Positions 4,255 through 42,800 are shown, counted from the stretch's first letter. The stretch is DNA of 64,000 nt from Proteobacteria bacterium UBA5122 (GCA_002415485.1 DHYU01000071.1:389-64388), one strand, 5' to 3'. A program made the numbers and translations. The notes: a model not told the origin generated them from the sequence alone.

Positions 4255-6369
4255 ATGAAACACCTTCGTACTTCCGTTCTTCTGATCGCCGCCACCTTCT
4301 ACGCGGCCCCTGGCCTCGCAGAACTGCCTGCCTTTAACGACAGCCTGCTGCTGTCGATCGCGACCGGCACCGAACAACCGCTGACGCGCGCACCCTCCGT
4401 CGCGACGATCATCACCGCCGAGCAGATCCGCAACATGGGCGCCACCAAGCTCAGCCAGGTGCTCGACACCGTGCCCGGCATCCACGTCTATCCGCTCGCC
4501 TACATCGGCATGCAGCCCGCGTATTCGATCCGCGGCATCCATACCGGCGGCGCCGCCGAATTATTGTTCATGCGCAACGGCATCCCGATCCAGCAACCCA
4601 CCAGTGGCGGCCCGTTCAATGCCTTCGACATGCACACCCAGGACATCGCCCGTCTCGAAATCATTCGCGGCCCCGGCTCGGCCGTCTACGGCGCCGATGC
4701 CTTTTCCGGCGTCGTCAACATCATCACCAAAGACGCCAACGACCTGAACGGTAACCACACGGGCATCCGCAGCGGCTCATTCGACAGCCAACAGGCCTGG
4801 CTACAACACGGCGGCCACTATGGCGACTGGGAACTTGCCTTTAATCTGGACGTAGGCAAGACCGACGGCGACCGCAGTCGCATCATAGAGCGCGACCTGC
4901 AGAACAGCCTCGACAAAACCTTCAACACCACGGCCAGTCTCGCCCCCGGCCCGCTGGCGACTGGAGGCGAAACGCTCAACAGCTATCTGAATCTGAAACA
5001 CGGCGCCTGGTCGGTCGATCTGTGGCGCTGGCAGGTGCGTGACAGCGGCAACGGCGCCAACGCCACCTATGCCCTGGACCCCAACGCCGTCGGCAGCGAG
5101 GACTATAGCTCCAGCCAAATCGCCCTCGAGTACCAAGAACAGCTAACGACAGATTGGTCGTTCAACACCCATCTGAGCTATTCGGTACAGGAACTGCGCC
5201 GCCGTTACATGCTGTTTCCACCCGGCGCCAAACTGCCCATCAACAGCGATGGCAACGTCGACTTCGCAAACCCTGTCGGCCTCGTCACCTTCACCGACGG
5301 CATGCACGGCTACCCTTCGGCGGATATGGCAACACGGGAATTTGAAACCAGCTCGATCTTTGAAGGGTTTACCAATCAACGCTGGCGCCTCGGCATTGGC
5401 AGCACCCACATCTCTGCGCGTGGATATTCACACAAGAACTTTGGCAAGGGCATCATCGACGGCACCCAGCCCGTCGTCGATGGTACCTTGACCTACATCG
5501 ACGGCGGTCCCTCGCACTTTTACGATACTCCGAAAAAAGAACGCAATCGTTGGCATGTCTCACTGCAGGATGAGTGGCAGTTTCTGCCCGATTGGATGCT
5601 GACCGCCGGCCTGCGTTACGACCGCTATTCAGACTTCGGCAGCACCACCAACCCACGCGCCGCACTGGTATGGGCCACGCGCCACAACCTGACCACCAAA
5701 CTGCTCTATGGTGAGGCCTTCCGCGCGCCGTCATTCAACGAGCTGTACCTGATCAACAACCCCTCGACCTGGGGCGACCCCAATCTGAACCCGGTGACCA
5801 TCAACACCACCGAGTTGATGGTGATCTACGAGCCCACGTTTGATCTGCACACCATCGCCAACCTTTATCAGTACGATATCGATGACGCCATCGTCTATCG
5901 CACCGACCCGTCGGCCAACGTCAACCGCGCCACCAACCTCGGCGGCCAGCAGGGACATGGCCTCGAACTGGAGGCACAATGGCAGATCAGCCGCCCCCTG
6001 CGTCTCGATGCCAACGCCAACTGGCAACAGGCCGAATATGAACTCAGCGGCGCCGATGTCGCTGACGCCCCCGCCCGCCAGCTGTTTGTGGCCGCCTTCT
6101 GGCAGATGACTAGCGCCTGGTCCCTGTATGGCCAAAGCAAGTGGGTCAGCCATCGCCAACGCCCCGTCGGTGATGGCCGTGACCGCATCGCCGATCACAC
6201 GCTCACCAACCTCAGTCTGCGTTACCAAGCCAGCCAAGGCTGGCACAGCGCGCTGCTGGTGAAGAACCTGTTTGACCGCGAGGCCTTCGACCCCAACAAC
6301 GGTCCGGGCAAGGATGATTTTCCGCGTGAGGGTCGCAGCGTCATGCTCGAGCTGGGTACCGAGTTCTAA
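4255..6369 (+). CDS. TonB-dependent outer-membrane receptor
   Basis: Signal peptide, plug region (APSVATIITAEQIRNMGATKLSQVLDTVPGIHV, IEIIRGPGSAVYGADAFSGVVNIITK), long beta-barrel, and terminal ...LELGTEF ending in an aromatic residue. Confidence 0.9.
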   Translation: MKHLRTSVLLIAATFYAAPGLAELPAFNDSLLLSIATGTEQPLTRAPSVATIITAEQIRNMGATKLSQVLDTVPGIHVYPLAYIGMQPAYSIRGIHTGGAAELLFMRNGIPIQQPTSGGPFNAFDMHTQDIARLEIIRGPGSAVYGADAFSGVVNIITKDANDLNGNHTGIRSGSFDSQQAWLQHGGHYGDWELAFNLDVGKTDGDRSRIIERDLQNSLDKTFNTTASLAPGPLATGGETLNSYLNLKHGAWSVDLWRWQVRDSGNGANATYALDPNAVGSEDYSSSQIALEYQEQLTTDWSFNTHLSYSVQELRRRYMLFPPGAKLPINSDGNVDFANPVGLVTFTDGMHGYPSADMATREFETSSIFEGFTNQRWRLGIGSTHISARGYSHKNFGKGIIDGTQPVVDGTLTYIDGGPSHFYDTPKKERNRWHVSLQDEWQFLPDWMLTAGLRYDRYSDFGSTTNPRAALVWATRHNLTTKLLYGEAFRAPSFNELYLINNPSTWGDPNLNPVTINTTELMVIYEPTFDLHTIANLYQYDIDDAIVYRTDPSANVNRATNLGGQQGHGLELEAQWQISRPLRLDANANWQQAEYELSGADVADAPARQLFVAAFWQMTSAWSLYGQSKWVSHRQRPVGDGRDRIADHTLTNLSLRYQASQGWHSALLVKNLFDREAFDPNNGPGKDDFPREGRSVMLELGTEF

Positions 6370-15011: not shown

Positions 15012-15845
15012 ATGCAGCAATATCTGGACTTAATGCGCCATGTTTACGAACACGGCCACCGCAAGGAAGATCGCACCGGCACCGGCACGGTCAGCGTCTT
15101 TGGTTATCAGATGCGCTTTGACCTCAGCGAAGGCTTTCCGATGGTCACCACCAAAAAGCTGCACCTGAAGTCGATCATCCATGAACTGCTGTGGTTCCTC
15201 AAAGGCGAGACCAATATCGCCTATCTAAAGGAACACGGCGTGCGCATCTGGGATGAATGGGCGACCGAAGACGGCGACCTCGGCCCGGTCTATGGCAAAC
15301 AATGGCGCTCATGGGCCACACCCGATGGCCGCAGCATCGACCAAATATCTGAGGTCATCGCCCAGATCAAGGCCAAACCCGATTCACGCCGCCTGATCGT
15401 CAGCGCCTGGAACCCGGCCGACCTGCCCGACGAATCCATCAGCCCACAGGCCAATGTCGCCGAAGGCCGCATGGCACTCGCCGCCTGCCACACCTTCTTC
15501 CAGTTCTACGTCAACAACGGCAAGCTATCGTGCCAGCTCTATCAGCGCAGTGCGGATATCTTCCTCGGCGTACCATTCAACATCGCCTCATATGCACTGC
15601 TGACGATGATGATTGCCCAAGTCTGTGACCTGGAACCCGGCGACTTCGTCCACACCTTCGGCGACGCCCACCTGTATCTGGATCACCTCGACAAAGCCGA
15701 GCTGCAACTATCACGCACGCCCTTGCCGCTACCGACCATGAAGCTGAACCCGGCGATCAAGGATATCTTCGCCTTCACCTATGACGACTTCACCCTCGAA
15801 GGTTACGAACATCACCCCCACATCCCCGCCAAGGTGTCGGTGTAA
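15012..15845 (+). CDS. thyA: Thymidylate synthase
   Basis: [23 protein letters not shown] (catalytic Cys) and [19 protein letters not shown]. Confidence 0.95.
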
Positions 15846-16336
15846 TGAAGATCTCCATCATCGTCGCCATGGCCGACAACCGCGTCATCGGCATCAACAA
15901 CGCACTGCCATGGAAACTCTCCGGCGACATGGCCTGGTTCAAACAACAGACCATGGGCAAACCCATCATCATGGGCCGCAAGACCTACGAATCCATAGGC
16001 CGCCCACTGCCCGGCCGCGACAACATCATCATCACCCGCGATCGTAGTTATTTTGTTGAAAAATGTGCCGTCGCCCACGACACCGATGATGCAATTAGAC
16101 TGGCTGGCGATGTGGATGAAATCATGATTATCGGCGGCGCCAGTTTTTATGAACAAATGCTGCCACAAGCAGATCGCCTGTACCTAACCCTCGTCCACGG
16201 TGAAGTTGAAGGCGACGCCTGGTTCCCCGAGATTGATTTCAAACAGTGGCAAGAAATCGAACGCCACGATCATCAAGCAGACGAGAAAAATCAGTTTGAT
16301 CACAGCTTTTTGATATTGGAACGCAAACCCTCTTAA
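15845..16336 (+). CDS. folA: Dihydrofolate reductase
   Basis: ISIIVAMADNRVIGINNALPW..L..D..WF...T.GKPIIMGRKTYESIG. The start overlaps the thyA stop (TAATG). Confidence 0.92.
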   Translation: MKISIIVAMADNRVIGINNALPWKLSGDMAWFKQQTMGKPIIMGRKTYESIGRPLPGRDNIIITRDRSYFVEKCAVAHDTDDAIRLAGDVDEIMIIGGASFYEQMLPQADRLYLTLVHGEVEGDAWFPEIDFKQWQEIERHDHQADEKNQFDHSFLILERKPS

Positions 16337-16524
16337 GGCTTGCAGAGTAAATTCGAACTAAATCGCATCTATTGAATTACGGAGGAGACTCATGCGCCTC
16401 CGCGACATACTCATGTCTATTAGCTCAAACTTGAACTAATACAAATCACAGTCACTTGTTATATTTCGTTTTCAGGTAAATTCAATAGTCGCTTGCTTGC
16501 GGAGCGTCCCTCTCGACCTCAGTG

Positions 16525-17010
16525 TTAGGTTGCGTTTCGCGGCAACCGCATATGAATAAGCGCAACCTGATTTCCTTTCTTGTCTTTCCGTTCCTCGACT
16601 GCATAAGGTTGAAAACCCAATTTCGGGTAGAGCAGCAGGCCAGCAACGTTTTGGTTGAAACACGATACCGTTACCTCGGCGGCTTGGTATTTCGAGAAAG
16701 CATGGTCAATCATCTGTTCGATGAGATACCGACCTACCCCGCGCCCGCGGGCCACCGAGGAAACAATGACGTTTCCGATGGAGCAACAGCCGCCAACTTC
16801 CCAGCGGTAGAAGTTGGCGAAAGCGACGACTTCACCGTCAAGCTCTACTACTGTTGAGTCTGAACGCTGTGCAATTGCGTCCTGCAACTGAGATGGGGCC
16901 AACGGAAAATCTGCCATTGGAAACAAGAAGAACAATTCATCCTCGCTTTGCGGAAAGCCGCAAATGATCTGAATGTCTTTCTCGGCGACAGGGCGATGAC
17001 TCAGCGACAT
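16525..17010 (-). CDS. GNAT family N-acetyltransferase (cassette 5)
   Basis: The acetyl-CoA motif VARGRGVGRYLIEQMIDHAF and overall GNAT layout. The cassette begins GTTAGGT (17027-17021), and ACCTAAC overlaps its stop. Confidence 0.85.
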   Translation of the reverse strand: MSLSHRPVAEKDIQIICGFPQSEDELFFLFPMADFPLAPSQLQDAIAQRSDSTVVELDGEVVAFANFYRWEVGGCCSIGNVIVSSVARGRGVGRYLIEQMIDHAFSKYQAAEVTVSCFNQNVAGLLLYPKLGFQPYAVEERKDKKGNQVALIHMRLPRNAT

Positions 17011-17020
17011 GTTTCAAGCA

Positions 17021-17134
17021 ACCTAACGTTGCGCTAAGCTGCATTTTGAATGCGGCGCTTTTTTGCAAAAAAATGAACGAAGCGAGTTGCAAAAAAGTGC
17101 CGCGGAAAATGACGGCTTGAGCGCTTTGTTATGT
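17021..17134 (-). repeat. attC site (between cassettes 4 and 5)
   Basis: Minus strand reads ACATAACAAAGCGCTCAAGCC...GCAGCTTAGCGCAAC-GTTAGGT, an imperfect palindrome of about 114 nt ending in a GTTRRRY core. Confidence 0.7.
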
Positions 17135-17137
17135 GGA

Positions 17138-17536
17138 TCATTTACTAGCACCATCACCTATTTTTCCAAGCACAGGCGACTCACGAAATAGGGCGAAATA
17201 GGGGACAGACCACGTTTTTACTTCTCTTTTTGGGAAAAACGTGGTCTGTCCCCTATTATTCTCTGAAATTACAACGTCATTTTCAGTAATATCGGCGTCA
17301 ACACATTTGTTTCTTTCAAAAAAACTTGTGAAGCTCCTTCCTAAGTAATGAGACGGATCACCGTCATAATCTAACCCATTCTTGATTTTTGAGTACTGAA
17401 CACTCGATGTTGGCTGACAGTAAGGGCTCGGCTTACCCCCGCATACATATTTTGGGTCAAGGTCCTCAAAGTACGGTACTGTAATCGAGCATCCAGACAG
17501 TGCTAAAGCACCGGCCAATATTGCTTCTTTCTTCAT
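17138..17536 (-). CDS. Hypothetical lipoprotein (cassette 4)
   Basis: MKKEAILAGALALSGCS lipobox, AAGGA RBS, internal Met start preferred; no recognised domain. Confidence 0.65.
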   Translation of the reverse strand: MKKEAILAGALALSGCSITVPYFEDLDPKYVCGGKPSPYCQPTSSVQYSKIKNGLDYDGDPSHYLGRSFTSFFERNKCVDADITENDVVISENNRGQTTFFPKREVKTWSVPYFALFRESPVLGKIGDGASK

Positions 17537-17577
17537 GAATATTCCTTTTTCATTGTGCTGCGGATTTACTAAAATTA

Positions 17578-17649
17578 GCCTAACGCCAGCCATCAGCCGA
17601 CCCGAAAACGCGCAGCGTTTTTGGGGTCGGCTGTATGGCCTTGTTAGCG
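17578..17649 (-). repeat. attC site (between cassettes 3 and 4)
   Basis: Minus strand reads CGCTAACAAGGCCATACAGCCGACCC-caaaaacgctgcgcgttttc-GGGTCGGCTGATGGCTGGC-GTTAGGC, a clear stem with bulges. Confidence 0.8.
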
Positions 17650-17652
17650 CAA

Positions 17653-18267
17653 TTATGTCTGCATGCTCTCAACGGCATGGAACAAACCGAACGTTGAACT
17701 ATATGGCACCTGAAGCTGTTTCTTCTCAACATTGACCAGTGCGGTACCTTCTCTTTTCTTCTGTTTCCAGATTAATTTGTAGCGCACCAATTTTCCTGGG
17801 GCAGCTTCCAACTTGACTGTTACTCGCCTTGTGACTTGCTCCCCAAACTCAACGCCAATTGACTTTGACAAGTTCTTCTGAACTTCCGTTTCTATGAGCG
17901 TCCATAGGCTTGTTTTAATTCTCCCATCTGTTATTTGCTTTTTGTTGATTATGAATGAGTTTGTTACCGTTCTTGTAAATTCATGCTCACTTACAAGAGG
18001 GCTTGAGCCGTGTCGATTATCCAGAGGGATTTCTTCCTCTGTAGAGATGACATCTATTTCCGAAAGCATGCGATCTGCCACAAATTGGAAATCTGAAAGG
18101 TCAAAGGCTTCTTCTTCATTCGCACTGCTTATCGGGTCAGCGCTAGATTCCTTTGCCTTGTTTAGAAATCCAAATGAGTGCCGCGCAATTTTTATCGAAA
18201 ACCATATAAAAAACACGAATCCGATTAACAGAAGTATCTGCCAAATACTGATTCCTCCGAAACCCAT
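17653..18267 (-). CDS. Hypothetical membrane-anchored protein (cassette 3, 204 aa)
   Basis: Strong SD (AGGAGGAGG), one N-terminal TM helix (ISIWQILLLIGFVFFIWFSIKIA), and a soluble C-terminal domain with no family I recognise. Confidence 0.6.
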   Translation of the reverse strand: MGFGGISIWQILLLIGFVFFIWFSIKIARHSFGFLNKAKESSADPISSANEEEAFDLSDFQFVADRMLSEIDVISTEEEIPLDNRHGSSPLVSEHEFTRTVTNSFIINKKQITDGRIKTSLWTLIETEVQKNLSKSIGVEFGEQVTRRVTVKLEAAPGKLVRYKLIWKQKKREGTALVNVEKKQLQVPYSSTFGLFHAVESMQT

Positions 18268-18286
18268 GGTTCCTCCTCCTGTTGAG

Positions 18287-18372
18287 CGCTAACGTTTCAG
18301 CTGTGGGGCCAATTGCCGCATAGGGAGGCACGACCGACGCGGTAATTGGTCCCTACTAGCGTATGGTTATGT
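18287..18372 (-). repeat. attC site (between cassettes 2 and 3)
   Basis: Minus strand reads ACATAACCATACGCTAGTAGGGACCAATTACCGCG...TGCGGCAATTGGCCCCACAGCTGAAAC-GTTAGCG. The R'' core overlaps the cassette-2 stop. Confidence 0.75.
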
Positions 18373-18897
18373 TGCATTAATCTTTGGCTGATTATTAAAA
18401 AATAAAACAAGATCTCTAACCGTAATAACTTTTCCGTAGTATGGGTTTGCTTCATAGTTTTCAAATGATCTACCTGTCCTTTGGGCTATTATTCCCGCCA
18501 AATCCATATCTAAATCATCGTCATCCAGCCCTAAATCGTCTTTTAGACTATCGGATGCTTTTATAGGAATGGTTCTGTTGGTTGGGAGAAACTCTTGAAG
18601 CTCCTCATAGACAGCCCTAATTATCCAGGTGTCTACCTCATGGCAGTCAAACTCACGAGCAAATGTACAAATAGACAATGACTCTCTAGATTTAAACATT
18701 TCATCGTAGTGAGCTTTGACCCTAGGAGTATCGATCCATGCCCAAATGCTAACAAAAACTACCAACCCAATAATTACGTAAAGCACCTGAATATAGAAAA
18801 AACACAGTAGCCCTAATACAAGTAAACCCACCCCAAGACTAATAAAACTTGGTTTGGAAGGTGTATATTCGGGCATGTATCTAGATGCTTTTCTCAT
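18367..18897 (-). CDS. Hypothetical two-TM protein with acidic C-terminal domain (cassette 2, 176 aa)
   Basis: Two hydrophobic helices (FISLGVGLLVLGLLCFFYI, VIIGLVVFVSIWAWI) followed by a soluble domain with a DSLKDDLGLDDDDLDMDLAGIIAQRTG stretch reminiscent of carrier-protein helix II. No confident family. Confidence 0.6.
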   Translation of the reverse strand: MRKASRYMPEYTPSKPSFISLGVGLLVLGLLCFFYIQVLYVIIGLVVFVSIWAWIDTPRVKAHYDEMFKSRESLSICTFAREFDCHEVDTWIIRAVYEELQEFLPTNRTIPIKASDSLKDDLGLDDDDLDMDLAGIIAQRTGRSFENYEANPYYGKVITVRDLVLFFNNQPKINAT

Positions 18898-18909
18898 CGG
18901 TACCTTGCA

Positions 18910-19017
18910 ACATAACGCCGCAAATCACCGGCAAATTGTAACAACGTAAGGCTTGTGCTATTCATAGCACAAACGAGCGTTGCGGAAATTTGTCCGAGTG
19001 AATTTGCCTTGTTAGCG
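18910..19017 (-). repeat. attC site (between cassettes 1 and 2)
   Basis: Minus strand reads CGCTAACAAGGCAAATTCACTCGG...CAATTTGCCGGTGATTTGCGGC-GTTATGT. The R'' core overlaps the cassette-1 stop. Confidence 0.7.
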
Positions 19018-19437
19018 GTTATTTTCAAACAAACCCCAATTGTCATGATATTTATTAAGTCTTTGTCGCGACACCACATACGGTTTCCAATTCTTCCCGT
19101 CGCCTTGTTCTGCGATCCTGCGGATTACGGTGCTTGGGGCAAAGTAATAGTCAGCCGTTACATCCCCTGACTCGCCCTTTCTAAGATTCACAAAAGCATA
19201 AATGTGGGACTTACTACCTTTGGGTGGCTCCTTGTTGCCCAAAACCCACCATGTTGATTTCTTGCTGTTTGTCTTCACTTGAATCGAATAGGTCACCCGG
19301 CACTCGGGGTCTGTAACGAGTATGTCGGCGCCAGCCGCACTACGCGACGTCGTCGACGCAATGAACCCTCGAGCAGAAAGTTGTGCTGCTACCAAGAATG
19401 TCCCGGTCATGCCGGTTAGCTGTGCTTTGCTTGCCAT
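19012..19437 (-). CDS. Hypothetical protein with PD-(D/E)xK-like (Hjc/restriction-endonuclease-like) motif layout (cassette 1, 141 aa)
   Basis: GTFLVAAQLSARGFIAS...GADILVTD...YSIQVKT follows the helix, D, then (E/Q)xK order of restriction-endonuclease-fold proteins. GAAGGAG SD. This is the first cassette after attI. Confidence 0.5.
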   Translation of the reverse strand: MASKAQLTGMTGTFLVAAQLSARGFIASTTSRSAAGADILVTDPECRVTYSIQVKTNSKKSTWWVLGNKEPPKGSKSHIYAFVNLRKGESGDVTADYYFAPSTVIRRIAEQGDGKNWKPYVVSRQRLNKYHDNWGLFENNR

Positions 19438-19453
19438 GATCGGCTCCTTCAGC

Positions 19454-19530
19454 CGCTAACAGTTTTATTTTGCTGCACGTGTAACCTATCACACTGCAGC
19501 CTATCCATTTTCTAATCGTTCCAAATAAAA
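19454..19530 (-). other. attI region; crossover core GTTAGCG at 19460-19454
   Basis: Minus strand reads ...AAAACT-GTTAGCG-GCTGAAGGAGCCGATG. The core is identical to the complement of the cassette-1 3' core (CGCTAAC). The extent toward intI is a guess. Confidence 0.5.
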
Positions 19531-19583
19531 TTATAACTTCTAGTTTTAAAAACATTTATTAGTTCATTGGCGAATTTCAAAAA

Positions 19584-19612
19584 GTGATATACAGGCAGCG
19601 CCTGTATATCAC
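19584..19612 (-). promoter_or_regulatory. Perfect 13-bp-arm palindrome (terminator-like on the cassette strand)
   Basis: GTGATATACAGGC-agc-GCCTGTATATCAC; on the minus strand it is followed directly by TTTTT. Confidence 0.45.
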
Positions 19613-19775
19613 CTTGCCGCCTATCCACCTTATAAGCCTATTAACTGTTATTAAACCACCCTTATTTTTCAAGCACTTATTTTAGCCAGATATTAATATG
19701 GTTTTGGATATACGGCATGGGCCGCTGATCTTTTGGCAATATTCGCACATTGACCGATTCCGCTCTTGATTTAAA

Positions 19776-19791
19776 CTGTACATACATACAG
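19776..19791. promoter_or_regulatory. LexA (SOS) box upstream of intI
   Basis: CTGTACATACATACAG fits CTGT-N8-ACAG exactly, 21 nt upstream of the intI ATG and overlapping a possible TTGATT/-10 promoter. Confidence 0.75.
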
Positions 19792-19811
19792 TTAGTGAGA
19801 GAGATTGAATT

Positions 19812-20819
19812 ATGGAAGATATTCCTAAGATGATTCCGTCACCTCCGGTCAAGCTATTGGATCGTTTAAGATTTTTTATCCGTTCTCAGGATTTGACATA
19901 TAAGACTGAACAAACTTATGTGGCATGGATCGCCCAATTCATTCGCTTTCATAACATGCGTCATCCAGAACAGATGGGAGCTCCTGACGTAACCGCCTTT
20001 TTGAATCATTTATCTTTAAATCGTAATGTTGCTAAAAACACTCAGCGTACTGCACTAAACGCGCTCGTATTTTTTTATAAAAAATTCTTACATCGTGATT
20101 TAGGTGATTTGAATATTCGTTACGCCAGTCGCCAACAACGTATTCCCGTCGTGTTCACACACGAAGAAGCGAGCGCTGTGATCAATAATCTTTCCGCTCC
20201 ATATCAACTAATGGCTAAATTGATGTATGGCAGTGGGCTGCGTTTAAGCGAATGTATTAAATTAAGAGTAATGGACGTAGATTTCGGCATGTCTAATCTA
20301 TTGGTTAGGAATGGCAAAGGAAATAAAGACCGCCGCACCGTGTTACCTCAGTCTGTCGTGGAGCCTCTTCAAGTACAGATTGAGCTTGTTAAACGCCTCC
20401 ATAATTTTGACATGGGCAATGGTCATGGCAGCGTATATCTGCCGAATGCCTTAGCCCGAAAATATCCCAGTGCTCCATTTCAACTAGGCTGGAAGTTTGT
20501 CTTTCCCGCAGCCAATGTTGCAAAAGATCCGCGTAGCGAAACCATTCGGCGCCACCACGTGATGGACTCGTCTGTACAACGCAATATTAAAAAGGCGATA
20601 CGGGATGCCAACATTTCCAAGCATTGTGGTTCTCACACCTTTCGCCATAGTTTCGCCACACGCTTGCTGGAGCAGGGCTACGATATTCGTACCATTCAGG
20701 AGCTACTTGGGCATTCAGATGTTAAGACAACCGAAATCTATACCCATGTAGTTAATCGAGGAGGCAAAGGTGTAATCAGCCCTGTGGATAGTCACCCGCC
20801 GACTATGACTTATCGTTAG
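19812..20819 (+). CDS. intI: Integron integrase
   Basis: Tyrosine recombinase boxes (GLRLSECIKLRV; HTFRHSFATRLLEQGYDIRTIQELLGHSDVKTTEIYTHV) plus the IntI-specific insertion LPNALARKYPSAPFQLGWKFVFPA. Confidence 0.92.
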   Translation: MEDIPKMIPSPPVKLLDRLRFFIRSQDLTYKTEQTYVAWIAQFIRFHNMRHPEQMGAPDVTAFLNHLSLNRNVAKNTQRTALNALVFFYKKFLHRDLGDLNIRYASRQQRIPVVFTHEEASAVINNLSAPYQLMAKLMYGSGLRLSECIKLRVMDVDFGMSNLLVRNGKGNKDRRTVLPQSVVEPLQVQIELVKRLHNFDMGNGHGSVYLPNALARKYPSAPFQLGWKFVFPAANVAKDPRSETIRRHHVMDSSVQRNIKKAIRDANISKHCGSHTFRHSFATRLLEQGYDIRTIQELLGHSDVKTTEIYTHVVNRGGKGVISPVDSHPPTMTYR

Positions 20820-20862
20820 CTCATCCACCTTTAACTTTTGGATGATCATTAATGACAGATGC

Positions 20863-20894
20863 AAAAAACCGGGCCTGGGCCCGGTCTTCTTTTT
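20863..20894. terminator. Bidirectional rho-independent terminator (intI / yhcB)
   Basis: A6-ACCGGG-cctggg-CCCGGT followed by a T-rich run, between convergent genes. Confidence 0.8.
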
Positions 20895-20910
20895 CTAAGC
20901 AGCGATGCAC

Positions 20911-21420
20911 TTAGTGTATGGTGCGTGCGGCATCGCTACGATCGGATGTTTCTTTTTCGGCGCTGACGTTTGGCGCGACTGATTCTGTCTTTTCATCCGC
21001 CTTGCTTTGGGTTTCAGTTTCAGCAGGTGCCGTTTTTTTTTCTGCTACCGTTGGCGCAGGCTTCACGGTTTCTTCCGCATGATGTTTGGCGCTGCCTTCG
21101 AGTACGGCCTTGCCATCGTCTGCGGTGAGGCTGCGAATTTGCGGTACGCTGCTGTCGCACAGTTGTTGTGCGCCACCTGCCAGGTGTTGGTAGAGGTCGC
21201 GGTAGTCTGAGGTCATTTTGTTGAACAATTCGGCGGTTTGGCCAAAGTGCTCACCCACCTGCTTGCGATACGCATCCATATCGACCTTGGCCTGCTCCAG
21301 GTCGCCCTGTAGTTGTTTGATTTTGTCGCCGGAGTCGTCTTTGTTGCGCCCCATAAAAATGCCGCAACCGAGGCCTATGCCGAATAGGGCCACGAGCACT
21401 ATTGCCATCCACGGATCCAT
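20911..21420 (-). CDS. yhcB: YhcB/ZapG (DUF1043) inner-membrane protein
   Basis: N-terminal TM, coiled coil, and HFGQTAELFNKMTSDYRDLYQHLA, matching E. coli YhcB (HFARSAELLDTMAHDYRQLYQHMA). Confidence 0.8.
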   Translation of the reverse strand: MDPWMAIVLVALFGIGLGCGIFMGRNKDDSGDKIKQLQGDLEQAKVDMDAYRKQVGEHFGQTAELFNKMTSDYRDLYQHLAGGAQQLCDSSVPQIRSLTADDGKAVLEGSAKHHAEETVKPAPTVAEKKTAPAETETQSKADEKTESVAPNVSAEKETSDRSDAARTIH

Positions 21421-21644: not shown

Positions 21645-23204
21645 ATGGGCACCAAAGACCAAACCATCAAAGAAATCTTCGCCAAAATGGATAAGCTGGG
21701 CGACCTGCCGGTGTTCAGCGCCTCGGTTAACCACATCTGTTCGATGAGCAATGACCCCGACGCCGATGCGATGGAGCTGTCGCAAGAGGTGTTGAAGGAT
21801 GCCAATCTCAGTGTGAAGCTGCTACGCCTCTCGAATTCGCCGTTCTATAACCGCAGCATGACCAAGGTAAATGTCATCTCACGGGCGGTGGTGTTATTGG
21901 GCTTTGATACGGTCAAGAATCTGAGCCTGACCATGAAGCTGATCGAGAGCTTCCAGCACGAACACCCCGGTATCGATATGGACCGGCTGCTGGTCAAGGC
22001 CTACATCACCGCCGGCTTTGTGCGCCAGCTGGCGATGAAGTGCGACATCAAGGATGCGGAGCAGACCTACACCTGCGCGCTGCTGCACAATCTGGGCGAG
22101 ATTGCAGTGGCCTATTTTCTGCCGGACCGTTACATCGAGATCGAAGGGCTCAAAAAAGAAGGCAATATGGCGCCGATCGATTGTGAAACGGCCGTGCTGG
22201 GTGGCAGCATTGTCTCCATCGGCAAGGAGCTGGCAACTGCCTGGGAATTCGCCCCCCAGGTGACGGCGACACTGTCATCCGAACTGGAACCGATCAAAAG
22301 CCAGATCACCAAACCGCTGGAGCTGAACAAGGCCCTGGCGTCGCTGGGCAACCGCATTGTCGATGCGCTCTACAGCGACAACCCGACCCAGCAGGAAATG
22401 CGCGAGATCATGGGCGATCTCGCCACTGCGACCGGCACTGACCTGGCCGAGGTCGAACGCTCACTGACGACATCCTTCAAGATGTCCTGCGAGCTGGCCA
22501 AAGAATACGGCCTGCCAAAGAAGAAACTCGCGCCGCTGGTCAAAGAGACCGGCGACGAAAGCCGCGACAAACTGGCGCGCACCTTTTCGTTCTTTGCCAA
22601 CAACCAAAACATCGATCAAGCCCCTCCACCACCTGCCGCCGCAGAGGCTGCGCCCGCAACCGCACCCGCAGAAGTAGCCGCGAGCGGGCCGCGCTTTGAT
22701 CCGATGTTGCAGCTGCAATACATCCAGGAGGTGACCGCGCTGATCACCGATGGCGCCAAGCTCAACACCGTTCTGATCAAAATATTCGAAGGCATCAACG
22801 TGGCGATGGGCTTTGAACGGGTGGTGCTGGCGCTACTGGGGCGTGAACGCAAGGACTACATGGGCCGCATCGCGATCGGCACCGATAAAGAAGAAATGAA
22901 GGCCTTCTTCAGCCGCCCCCTCAAACCGGATACCGACATCTTTTCGCGCATCACGCTGGAGGGGGTGGACCTGCTGGTGGAGGATGTGAACGATCCCCGC
23001 TGGGAGAAGGTCATCCCGCCGAAGTATGCCGCACAGGTAGGGGCCAAGGGCTTTATCATGGCCGCGATCAAGACCGGCGCCAAACCCATCGGCTTTGTCT
23101 ATGCCGACAAGGGCCGCTCACCGGAAAAGATTTTGCCGGAACAACACCGCGGCTTCATCCAGTTCATTGCCCAGGCACGCCTGGCCTTACTGACCTGCCG
23201 CTAA
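21645..23204 (+). CDS. HDOD domain signalling protein with C-terminal GAF-like domain
   Basis: LPVFSASVNHI..., LSVKLLRLSNSPFY, AVVLLGFDTVKNL and ALLHNLGEIAV are HDOD motifs. A Pro/Ala linker is followed by a GAF-like C-terminus. Confidence 0.75.
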   Translation: MGTKDQTIKEIFAKMDKLGDLPVFSASVNHICSMSNDPDADAMELSQEVLKDANLSVKLLRLSNSPFYNRSMTKVNVISRAVVLLGFDTVKNLSLTMKLIESFQHEHPGIDMDRLLVKAYITAGFVRQLAMKCDIKDAEQTYTCALLHNLGEIAVAYFLPDRYIEIEGLKKEGNMAPIDCETAVLGGSIVSIGKELATAWEFAPQVTATLSSELEPIKSQITKPLELNKALASLGNRIVDALYSDNPTQQEMREIMGDLATATGTDLAEVERSLTTSFKMSCELAKEYGLPKKKLAPLVKETGDESRDKLARTFSFFANNQNIDQAPPPPAAAEAAPATAPAEVAASGPRFDPMLQLQYIQEVTALITDGAKLNTVLIKIFEGINVAMGFERVVLALLGRERKDYMGRIAIGTDKEEMKAFFSRPLKPDTDIFSRITLEGVDLLVEDVNDPRWEKVIPPKYAAQVGAKGFIMAAIKTGAKPIGFVYADKGRSPEKILPEQHRGFIQFIAQARLALLTCR

Positions 23205-39876: not shown

Positions 39877-42800
39877 TCAGCGCTCGATCGAAAAGATGAA
39901 ATCGGCGCTCTGATATTCACCCGACTCCGCCTTCAGCTGCCAGTCTTGCGAGAGCTGGTAGCGCAGGTGGAGGGTGTTCACCGCATCCAGCAGGCCCACG
40001 CCGTAACCGACATACAGCCGTGGCGACAGATACCGCCCCATCAGCAACGCGGCCTGGTCGCCACCGCCACTGGTATCGATGCGCATCTCCTCCAGACCAA
40101 ATCGGTCACCGATACTGCGGGCCAGAAAATCCCCGCCCTTGAGACCGATCGCCAGCGCCGCCTGCGCCATCATCGCGCCCTCGCTGGACGAGGCGGTGCG
40201 ATCCAGCGGCCGCCCCAGCACCAGGTAACCGAGCACGTCGGTCTGCTCCATCGCCGGCACCGAATACAACTCAAACTCCGGCTGACGCAGCAGGCCCCGC
40301 ACCCGGATGCCCGCCGTCACGCTATCGATCTTACGCACTGCACGCAGGTCCAGCGCCGGGTTCGATACCGGCCCGCCGGCGAACATCATGCGCCCCTGCT
40401 CCACCGTCAGGTTCTGGCCATAGGCCTCATACCGCCCCTCGACCACACTGACCTCGCCGTTGGCCGTGGTCGGCTGGCCCGGCTCTTCGACCAACAACAG
40501 ATTGCCCGCAATCTTGCCCTCGAAACCAAAGCCATACAGATAGACCGGCTCGGCCAGCACCACTCGCACCCGACTGCTGATCTGCCACGGCGACGCCGGT
40601 GGTGCCTCGGCCCCGATGATCACCACGTCATCGGAGACCGATTGCACCGCCACCAACTCCTTCGGCAGCAGCCGGGCCTCAACCACACGCACCTCACCAT
40701 CCAGCCATAGCTGACTGCCCTTCAACCGCAACTGTAAATCGGGATCGACGAACACATGCGCCTCGGGGATATGCGAGACCTCTACCCGTTCACCCTTCAG
40801 CGCCAGCTGCGTCTCCCACCCCTGCTCGGCATCGAGCACGGTCTCACCGCTGGCCTGAAAACGACCACCACCCGACTCGCCGCTGAACTGATAGACCAGC
40901 CGCTCACCACCACGGCTCTGGACATCGGCCTCCAGCGCACTGACGTGCAGCCCCAGGCGCGGCACCTGCAAACGCCCATCGCGCAGTCCGAGGCGACCAT
41001 TGATCTTGGGCTGACCCAGGGTCCCTGACACCTGGGTTTCCAGATCAATATTACCCTCTACTCCAAATATCTCGTCTAGAACATTATTAAACAGGCCTAA
41101 ATCTGTGATGTGCCCCTTGGCCTTCACATCCAGCGCCTGCGCCGGCCCGGCAAACGCCAGCGGATCAAAACCCGGCAGGTTCAAATGCCCCTTGATGCCA
41201 TCACCACCAACGATCTGAACATCCACCTTCGAACGCAGACCCCGGCGATCAAATTCGCCACGCAGACTGCCACGGCTGAAATGCCAGTGGCCGCGCTGCT
41301 GGTCGATCAACGGATACGAGATGCTGCCCTTGCCCATGTCGATCGCCAACGAACCCGACACCTCGCCCGCCGCCTGCGCCGCGCGGACCGTCAGATCGAC
41401 ACGCCCATCGTGCAAACTAAAATCCACCGGCATCAGCTGATTGACCAACCGCAGATCGGTCAGCGTCACTGCCAGCTCACCTTGCCAACGCCCGGCATCA
41501 CCGCCGCCATTCAGACAGACGCGCGACCCGGCATTCAACCAACAGACCCGCGCCAACTGCCATTGTCCATGCAACCAGGAGAGATCCGCAGCAGCCTCTT
41601 GCTGACGCCAGCTGCCCCAACGCGGCGACGTGAATTCGGAGCCGGTCAGCAGACCACGCCAACCCACCCCGTCCTCATAACCACCCCGCACACTGATGCC
41701 CGTCGCATAGGTCGCGCGCGTCATATGGGCGCTGACCCGGTGTCGTTGCAGATCGCCATTGGCATTGATGCGCAACGCCGCCATCGACTCGCCCGCCACG
41801 TACAGATCCCGCGCATCGAGATTGAGATTCAGGTCCTGCCAACTGAGCAGCGTCAGCCCAAGCCGCCCCTGCAGCTGATCCACCATCGATGATCCACTGC
41901 CATCCTGATACACCAACCGCCACCCCTCAAACGACAGACTCAGTCGGGGTGCCTGACGACTGCCGCCCACTGTGCCGCGAATATCCAGCCTGCCGCTCAC
42001 ATCGGGGTATAGTGCGGCCAGGGACTGGCTGTTAAACAAGACGTCCAGCTTCACGTCATCCCCCCAGCGACCACTGAGCTGCAGACTGTTCTGCGGTGCG
42101 CTAAGCATGAACTGCTTGATCGCCATCTCCCTGCCGCTGGCCTGGACCTCAGCCACCAGCTGCAACGGCCCCTGCCGCAGCTGAGTCAAAACGGTCTCCA
42201 GCGCGGGTGATTGCGGCGGCAGCCACTGGCGCAACCACTGAAAGTCCTCGTCACCCACCACCAGGCCCGCCGCATCGAGGCGCAGGTGCCCGTCAATACC
42301 ACCATTCACCCGCCAATCGCCATCGGCATCGATCCGCGCCAACTGACTCTCGCCATGACGCAGATCATCACCAACGATCCTGAAGCTGATGTGTGGCCGT
42401 GCACGTTCACCATACGCACGGCCTTCTGCATCGACCCTGCCCGCCAACGACGGATGCAGCTGTTGCAAGGCCGGCGAGCGCAAATGCCAATTCAGCGCCA
42501 GCTGTTCACCCACGCGCCCCTTGAGCATCAATTCGCTCTGCGCCGATTTGAATTCACTGTGGGCAATCAACCAGTCGTCGCCGTTAAACTCCAAGCCCGC
42601 CTGCACGGCCACCGGATAATCACGCAACTCCCCGGTCAGGCGCTCGACCTCGATCGCCATGATGTGCGATTCGCTCGATACCTGGCGACCACCGGCGATC
42701 CCTGCCAAATCGATCTTTCCCGGGAATTCGCGCCAGATAGCCTCAGGATTAACGCCCTTCGCCTCCAGATCAACGAACCAGGCAAAATCCCCACCCCAAT

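Follow-up and report, generated by a model that had tools for sequence, protein, structure and literature searches.

A small, doubly scarred chromosomal integron next to folA in Proteobacteria bacterium UBA5122

The DNA analyzed here, a stretch of 64,000 nucleotides from Proteobacteria bacterium UBA5122 (GCA_002415485.1, DHYU01000071.1:389-64388; the window, with positions counted from its first letter), carries next to folA what we consider a complete, structurally intact chromosomal integron platform, with a probability of about 0.93. As a bacterial platform for the capture of genes, it comprises the integrase gene intI, a candidate attI region as docking site and a divergent array of five captured cassettes. 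Such a layout had been proposed in a first-pass annotation, and the integrase family, the tests on the attC recombination sites and the cassette boundaries bear it out. We would call the element a small chromosomal integron that bears two scars in its structure, and not a proven sedentary superintegron: cassette 4 has undergone an internal deletion or fusion, and cassette 5 has lost its attC beyond the R'' core. The gene order is lgt, thyA and folA on the plus strand, five open reading frames (ORFs) on the minus strand, intI (plus), a zapG-like gene (minus) and an HDOD gene (plus). All ORF coordinates and core strings of the locus were reproduced from a minus-strand read of 16300-19900 together with the ORF list.

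Against TIGR02249, the model for integron integrases, IntI scored 427.9 bits, with the cut-off at 265. It matched PF00589 at 3.6e-37 as well as PF13495 and has every catalytic motif (R, K, HxxR, H, Y). Among solved structures, its best match was VchIntIA (PDB 2A3V; E 2.7e-85, residues 18-325). The alignment of both proteins is ungapped through the IntI-specific domain (LPNALARKYPSAPFQLGWKFVFPA...RRHH), and equivalents of VchIntIA W219, P232, H240 and H241 are kept. Among the stretches listed for Xer recombinases, matches to IntI covered residues 16-192 (XerA) and 247-317 or shorter (the others), leaving residues 193-246 uncovered. On the basis of these alignments we read residues 193-246 or so as the IntI-specific additional domain. 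The insertion that the first-pass annotation had recognized is thus real by model score and by ungapped alignment, and the alignment, named there as a way to refute the integron, found the domain present. At the same time, IntI falls below the class-1 equivalog cut-off (NF011946, 317.8 bits vs. 435). Because the closest integrase found among GTDB species representatives and JGI metagenomes, exact copies aside, is at most 63% identical, IntI is a distinct lineage, one among hundreds of environmental integron lineages. Judged by the closest relatives of IntI and of the cassettes, the host is probably an environmental gammaproteobacterium of the Cellvibrionales/Spongiibacteraceae group.

The attC sites provide a second body of evidence. 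In these cassettes the plus strand serves as the bottom strand, and on it each of the four sites folded into a single hairpin (attC1, -24.1 kcal/mol, z -4.2; attC2, -16.5 kcal/mol, z -2.2; attC3, -25.9 kcal/mol, z -6.7; attC4, -31.3 kcal/mol, z -5.6). With TAAC/GTTA pairing forced, attC1 to attC4 showed an R-box stem, an unpaired spacer of 2-4 nt, stems interrupted by bulges and a variable apex. All four have the architecture of attC sites, namely R''/R' cores of the form RYYYAAC/GTTRRRY, spacer, L boxes, extrahelical bases and a variable terminus. The single-base bulges beyond the central spacer all lie on the 3' ('') arm, with a 5'-arm A in attC2 as sole exception. Read on the bottom strand, the 3'-arm bulges are A/A/T in attC1 (19001, 18997, 18993), T/T in attC2 (18357, 18350), T in attC3 (17634) and G/A in attC4. 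Bottom-strand folding had been put forward as a check on the integron, and with four hairpins and bulges on the correct arm its outcome was favorable. The accompanying statement that a palindrome follows each ORF applies to four ORFs; the GNAT ORF of cassette 5 is followed by a 7-nt R'' core only. The sites are heterogeneous in length (72, 86, 108 and 114 nt) and in sequence (46% mean column identity), and a MAFFT alignment of the full-length sites misaligned their 3' ends.

Two kinds of detector were applied to these sites. A rule-based one, encoding the R-box stem, spacer, 3'-arm bulges and variable apex, recovered all four attCs when both strands of the window were searched, at -15.6 to -31.3 kcal/mol; the value of -15.6 kcal/mol belongs to attC2 with its R box forced. 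Elsewhere on the two strands (~124 kb) it reported two weak hairpins on the minus strand, at 6154-6227 (-12.7 kcal/mol) and 41657-41751 (-14.9 kcal/mol), which lie in GC-rich DNA, have no covariance-model support and are probably due to chance. When the same detector was run on 80 foreign intI loci, 44 of the sites found fell within the 278 kb that lie upstream of intI on the expected strand, as opposed to 11 in the ~1.67 Mb made up by every other zone and strand. The second detector, covariance model R2, was trained on 18 of these foreign sites and on no others, with the variable center masked. It detected attC4 (42.7 bits, E 8.7e-10), attC1 (38.7 bits, E 1.1e-8) and attC3 (28.6 bits, E 7e-6), and nothing else at E<=10 in the whole window, so that a covariance-model check of the kind envisaged in the first pass succeeded for three sites and failed for attC2. 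On 80 further independent metagenomic intI loci, R2 gave 17 matches at E<=0.01, every one of them upstream of intI and on the expected strand. An earlier model, R1, was made from trimmed copies of the window's own sites and abandoned, as it was unable to span long sites: it returned attC3 in full and partial, truncated matches at attC4 and attC1. attC is not represented by a family in Rfam, whose scan of the window yielded sub-threshold noise only; the 'mir-329' match in that scan (27 bits, below threshold) was rejected, being really a 23-bp inverted repeat within cassette 4.

Further evidence comes from the ends of the cassettes. The first cassette opens with GTTAGCG (19460-19454). In cassettes 1, 2, 3 and 5 the start is the exact complement of the cassette's own R'' core, just as had been claimed from the first inspection, and cassette 4 is the exception. 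By comparison, none of the four R'' cores in the array is complementary to the adjoining R' core, and only 4 of 120 permutations reach at least four matches between own start and R''. To judge from these strings, the complementarity is the footprint of circular cassettes cut between G and TT. Independent copies point the same way: at other loci, cassette families 1, 2 and 4 are again bounded by attCs and share the start and R'' cores, and homology to such copies begins at GTT. A homologue of cassette 1 at locus L169 is preceded by an attC and starts GTTAGCGGCTGAGGAGG, compared with GTTAGCGGCTGAAGGAG in the window; upstream of the G both sequences diverge, and the downstream attC of the homologue ends in CGCTAAC like that of window cassette 1. 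For cassette 2, a homologue (L085) follows an attC of 32.2 bits and shares the leader GTTAnGTTGCAAGGTA.

The exceptional cassette 4 can be explained by its history. Its ORF of 132 aa aligns to a family of ~250-aa lipoproteins over query residues ~1-100 only. An intact cassette of this family (L171) starts GCGTTAGGCTAATT, which is identical to window 17586-17573, and closes with an attC of 38.9 bits whose R'' core, GCCTAAC, is precisely the complement that is wanting in window cassette 4 (ACATAAC). The ORF contains a 23-bp inverted repeat free of mismatches (17197-17257; loop of 15 nt, -25.5 kcal/mol, z -8.9), situated exactly where homology to the full-length lipoprotein family stops; the junction of the rearrangement may lie here, through a snap-back duplication for instance. 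Because homology ends at this repeat and is followed by an attC with the foreign R'' core ACATAAC, we interpret cassette 4 as a fusion in which the 5' portion comes from one cassette and the 3' end, including the attC, from another. Such chimerism would explain its failed start/R'' complementarity. The ORF itself, listed among the candidate novel functions in the first pass, is by the same alignment a truncated lipoprotein gene instead.

The second scar is located at the distal end of the array. The R'' core of cassette 5, ACCTAAC, is the exact complement of its start, GTTAGGT. However, a fifth attC was sought in 16337-16530 and none was found: 16400-16530 contains no hairpin (z -0.34), and R2 gave no unfiltered match from folA to the GNAT stop. 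The distal attC and anything beyond it have been deleted, and the array end is truncated. Consequently, cassette 5 is no longer excisable. Coordinates of all features are collected in Table 1.

Table 1. Features of the integron and its chromosomal flanks, in window positions
Feature	Position	Strand	Details
intI, integron integrase	19812-20819	+	335 aa; apparently intact; TIGR02249
Candidate intI promoter, TTGACC-16-TAAACT	19750-19777	+	promoter scan
LexA-box-like palindrome CTGTACATACATACAG	19776-19791	+	overlaps candidate promoter; 36 nt before ATG
attI region	19454-19635	-	candidate site; crossover between G and TT at 19460/19459; GTTACAC...GTTAGCG pair resembling a simple site
Cassette 1	18916-19459	-	544 bp; ORF 19012-19437, 141 aa; attC1
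attC1	18910-19017	-	108 nt; cores CGCTAAC 19017-19011, GTTATGT 18916-18910
Cassette 2	18293-18915	-	623 bp; ORF 18367-18897, 176 aa; attC2
attC2	18287-18372	-	86 nt; cores ACATAAC 18372-18366, GTTAGCG 18293-18287
Cassette 3	17584-18292	-	709 bp; ORF 17653-18267, 204 aa; attC3
attC3	17578-17649	-	72 nt; cores CGCTAAC 17649-17643, GTTAGGC 17584-17578
Cassette 4, putative chimera	17027-17583	-	557 bp; ORF 17138-17536 (or from 17593), 132 aa; attC4
attC4	17021-17134	-	114 nt; cores ACATAAC 17134-17128, GTTAGGT 17027-17021
Cassette 5, truncated	16524-17026	-	ORF 16525-17010, 161 aa; R'' core ACCTAAC 16530-16524 only
Spacer, folA stop to truncated array end	16337-16523		187 bp; small hairpins, no attC
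folA, left flank	15845-16336	+	chromosomal type 3 dihydrofolate reductase (DHFR); converges on array; not a cassette
zapG-like core gene, right flank	20911-21420	-	PF06295 match 3.1e-19
HDOD-domain gene beyond zapG-like gene	21645-23204

The region between the array and intI is organized as expected for an attI site, both in its junction and in the divergent layout of intI and array, while attI sequences are lineage-specific. Its edge can be placed by comparison with L169, as homology to the cassette 1 homologue begins exactly at GTTAGCG, with the presumed attI upstream here and an attC there. The spacer between intI and attI contains two 29-nt direct repeats (19487-19515 and 19607-19635; 79% identical, 120 bp apart) and a 16-bp hairpin (19581-19615, -14.1 kcal/mol, z -5.4) that is followed by TTTTT on the cassette strand and overlaps the second repeat. 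These structures could be accessory IntI-binding sites, or a terminator insulating the array; binding of IntI to the 29-nt repeats is inferred. Upstream of intI, the palindrome CTGTACATACATACAG is the only CTGT-N8-ACAG in the window. A CTG-N10-CAG motif was found within 200 nt upstream of intI in 43 of 141 related intI loci, compared with about 0.06 expected per locus; among the 40 loci listed its position ranges from -14 to -52, and one of them (L023) has the identical box at -37. Integron integrases are reportedly under SOS control (Guerin et al., 2009), and the position and recurrence of the LexA-like box would fit such control.

If the element works as established integron biology describes, LexA would repress intI until an SOS response. 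IntI would then bind attCs folded as bottom-strand hairpins through their bulged bases and excise cassettes as circles by attC x attC recombination. The circles would be reinserted at attI, with the cut between G and TT, and the cassette nearest attI would be the best expressed.

The chromosomal setting of the integron is defined by its flanks, lgt-thyA-folA on one side and zapG-HDOD-MOSC on the other, which are syntenic with a relative. The GC content is 44.2% in 16337-20910, compared with 54% to the left, 59% to the right and 55.6% in the whole window; the AT-richness that had been noticed for the array is therefore genuine. The integron edges coincide exactly with this GC drop and with the synteny break, which we count in favor of an integron. 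The folA product scores 196.9 bits on the type 3 DHFR model NF008037 (cut-off 168). The start of folA overlaps the thyA stop by one base (window 15843-15847), and both genes are probably translationally coupled; folA is thus a core gene and not a dfr cassette. Hairpins in the spacer behind it (16380-16417, z -2.6) may terminate folA.

One related genome, L083, was recovered for comparison of the folA-zapG interval. Its folA product is 91% identical at the amino acid level, and its flanks are 84% and 77% identical at the DNA level. Homology through thyA and folA ends at window position 16324, synteny is back at 21078 and runs for 6.3 kb; thus, the integron occupies a variable slot. In L083 this slot (L083 1228-4574) holds four unrelated genes in place of an integron, in the order GST, CMD-family, AraC-type and a 269-aa gene, between thyA-folA and zapG-HDOD-MOSC. 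The first pass had suggested checking whether intI and folA stay fixed across relatives; L083 keeps folA without the integron. Likewise, none of 160 related intI loci adjoins a homologue of folA, thyA, zapG or HDOD. With regard to mobility, the slot contains only the integron: no transposase, tni or insertion sequence (IS) genes are in the ORF list, and the repeat search returned neither terminal inverted repeats nor target duplications. A 21-nt direct repeat (16371-16391 and 19804-19824, 81% identical), the second copy of which spans the intI start codon, is probably due to chance, its similarity stopping at its own ends.

Several observations weigh against an intact platform. R2 failed to detect attC2 even with filters off; this site has a longer central spacer and a first stem of 3 bp, a geometry that is found in foreign arrays too. 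The hairpin with its T-run stands between intI and attI. No sigma-70-like site of at least 9/12 was found by the promoter scan on the cassette strand between intI and attI, where a cassette promoter (Pc) was sought; by eye, this strand has a perfect TATAAT with a poor -35 only. Three exact copies of intI, from three sequencing runs, all have the identical array, and no cassette turnover is visible; a search of GTDB representatives and JGI metagenomes for a closer integrase, meant for a turnover test, yielded none that exceeded 63% identity. Finally, the distal attC loss together with the cassette 4 rearrangement could mean a decaying element. The missing Pc, the identical arrays, a last attC cut down to 7 nt and a deletion chimera with a truncated ORF would all suit a relic, that is, a platform that looks intact but is inactive, with an array that is frozen and eroding. 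We consider this doubtful, since IntI is full-length with all catalytic motifs and attC-binding residues, the promoter and LexA box are in place, and four attCs retain good hairpins and cores; moreover, the three runs may represent one strain.

Another scenario is a mobile integron, carried by a transposon or genomic island and recently inserted between folA and zapG. The short array, the heterogeneity of the attCs, which resembles that in mobile integrons, a GC content below host level and the related genome without an integron at the site would agree with it. However, the variable segment consists of the integron alone, bare of the mobility genes and repeats listed above, and IntI is neither a class-1 integrase by its model score nor more than 63% identical to anything in two large collections, which makes such an insertion very unlikely. 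That the element might be no integron at all, with an Xer-like recombinase lying by chance beside unrelated palindromes such as REP elements or terminators, has practically no chance of being correct. Although intergenic hairpins are generically common and the covariance model detects neither attC2 nor a fifth site, IntI lies far above the TIGR02249 cut-off, and the stretches listed for Xer proteins leave residues 193-246 uncovered. Moreover, the foreign-trained attC model picked out three sites (E<=7e-6) and left the rest of the 64 kb without a match, and the circular-cassette complementarity holds. The TIGR02249 score, the VchIntIA alignment and the R2 results on the window and on 80 independent loci refute it.

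The integron platform can be compared with known systems. IntegronFinder calls an integron complete when an integron integrase is accompanied by one attC or more (Cury et al., 2016; PMC4889954). Here, the IntI domain, covariance-model attCs (at least one within 4 kb, on one strand), the attC architecture and boundaries between G and TT were all found. The element shares with the complete integrons of that study the additional domain, attCs within 4 kb on one strand, the divergent order of intI, putative attI and cassettes, and cassettes that mostly consist of one promoterless ORF and an attC; it differs in nothing of kind, only in its distant IntI (at most 63% identity). With the integron of Vibrio cholerae (VchIntIA/IntI4, VCR-type attC) it has in common the full-length IntI alignment, the attC-binding residues, bottom-strand stems with bulges on the '' arm, the chromosomal location and a LexA box. 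In contrast, it holds 5 cassettes and not >100, and its attCs vary in length and sequence, whereas those of V. cholerae are a homogeneous repeat family. Since the integron is absent at the same site in a related genome, long-term residence cannot be claimed, unlike in V. cholerae. Of the hallmarks of sedentary integrons or superintegrons, a chromosomal location outside a transposon or plasmid is present. A large array of highly similar attCs is not (five cassettes, 72-114 nt), nor is vertical inheritance at a fixed locus, as judged from the L083 slot and the 160 intI loci. Consequently, of the earlier label 'sedentary chromosomal', we keep only the second word: the array is short, the attCs are heterogeneous and the relative has other genes in its slot. 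Like mobile integrons of classes 1-5, the element has few cassettes, attCs that are heterogeneous and an intI that an SOS box would regulate; it differs from them in an IntI under the class-1 cut-off, in the lack of a transposon or plasmid backbone and of resistance cassettes, and in that the adjoining folA is a core type 3 DHFR gene and not dfr.

Besides the platform, the cargo deserves attention. The cassettes had been called mostly orphan, which is correct only in the sense that no function is assigned, as the proteins of cassettes 1, 2 and 3 have 106, at least 145 and 23 homologues, respectively. The cassette 1 homologues are 40-77% identical to the window protein, whose AlphaFold model (pLDDT 90.6) matched Hjc, EcoRV, the SPARDA nuclease and I-Ssp6803I in Foldseek; a PD-(D/E)xK nuclease fold is thereby predicted. 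Among 44 homologues, D38 and V54-K55 are invariant and Q53 is nearly so, being E in some. The family is ~139 aa in size and widespread, from Ktedonobacteraceae to Zoogloea and Magnetococcus, with no Pfam entry. The cassette 3 protein consists of an N-terminal membrane helix, a disordered linker and a beta module. Its model (pLDDT 79.9; Foldseek matches 3zix, 6lhz and 3kog at E 4e-5 to 6e-4) predicts for this module a beta pore-forming fold like that of aerolysin or Clostridium perfringens enterotoxin, and from the positive residues after the helix we judge that the module faces the cytoplasm. A small membrane-tethered protein with an aerolysin fold is unusual.

Cassette 2, with homologues in marine Gammaproteobacteria, appears from its sequence to encode two membrane helices and an acidic C-terminal domain resembling acyl carrier protein. 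The conserved DLxLDxDDLDxDL of this family resembles the acyl-carrier-protein motif and lacks the Ser for phosphopantetheine; in a few database sources its members are labelled 'acyl carrier protein'. Cassette 5 encodes a GNAT acetyltransferase (PF00583, 7.8e-15). Searches with PADLOC defence models gave no match at E<=1 for the five cassette proteins, PHROGs returned only families of unknown function, for cassette 1, Pfam gave nothing on members of the cassette families, and PDB sequence profiles gave nothing for the families of cassettes 2 and 3.

Integron cassettes encoding anti-phage systems have been reported (Kieffer et al., bioRxiv 10.1101/2024.07.02.601719), and work cited in PMC12614218 treats sedentary integrons as defence biobanks. 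The cassettes described here resemble such systems in being compact, single-gene and of unassigned function, and in two predicted folds typical of defence effectors, a nuclease in cassette 1 and a pore-forming module in cassette 3; they differ in having no PADLOC match and no sensor component. Homologues of cassettes 1 and 3 adjoin Mrr_cat, HNH_2, Peptidase_U49 and EcoRII-C genes, with Mrr_cat, HNH_2 and Peptidase_U49 (Lit-like) next to members of the cassette 1 family (L084, L168, L169). These neighborhoods are suggestive of defence, no more. An anti-phage content of the cassettes, raised in the first pass, is thus hypothetical, though two of them have predicted effector-like folds. That cassette 1, as a stand-alone nuclease, and/or cassette 3, as a minimal pore-forming module anchored in the inner membrane, might be new single-gene anti-phage (abortive-infection) or toxin effectors travelling as integron cassettes seems unlikely to us. 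If it were true, an aerolysin-fold protein that is tethered to the membrane and acts from within the cell would represent a type of effector not described so far.

Taken together, the window contributes a further lineage of environmental integrons, its integrase sharing no more than 63% identity with any other that was recovered, and identifies the junction of folA and zapG as a variable slot, or hotspot, in this group. It also offers a worked example of how matching each cassette's start to its own R'' core can reveal chimeras. The integron itself is canonical, and further promise lies in its cargo proteins alone. Its practical value thus lies in two conserved and uncurated families, a predicted small nuclease and a predicted membrane-anchored aerolysin-like module, both of which are found repeatedly in cassette arrays and in the neighborhood of genes for restriction or abortive infection.

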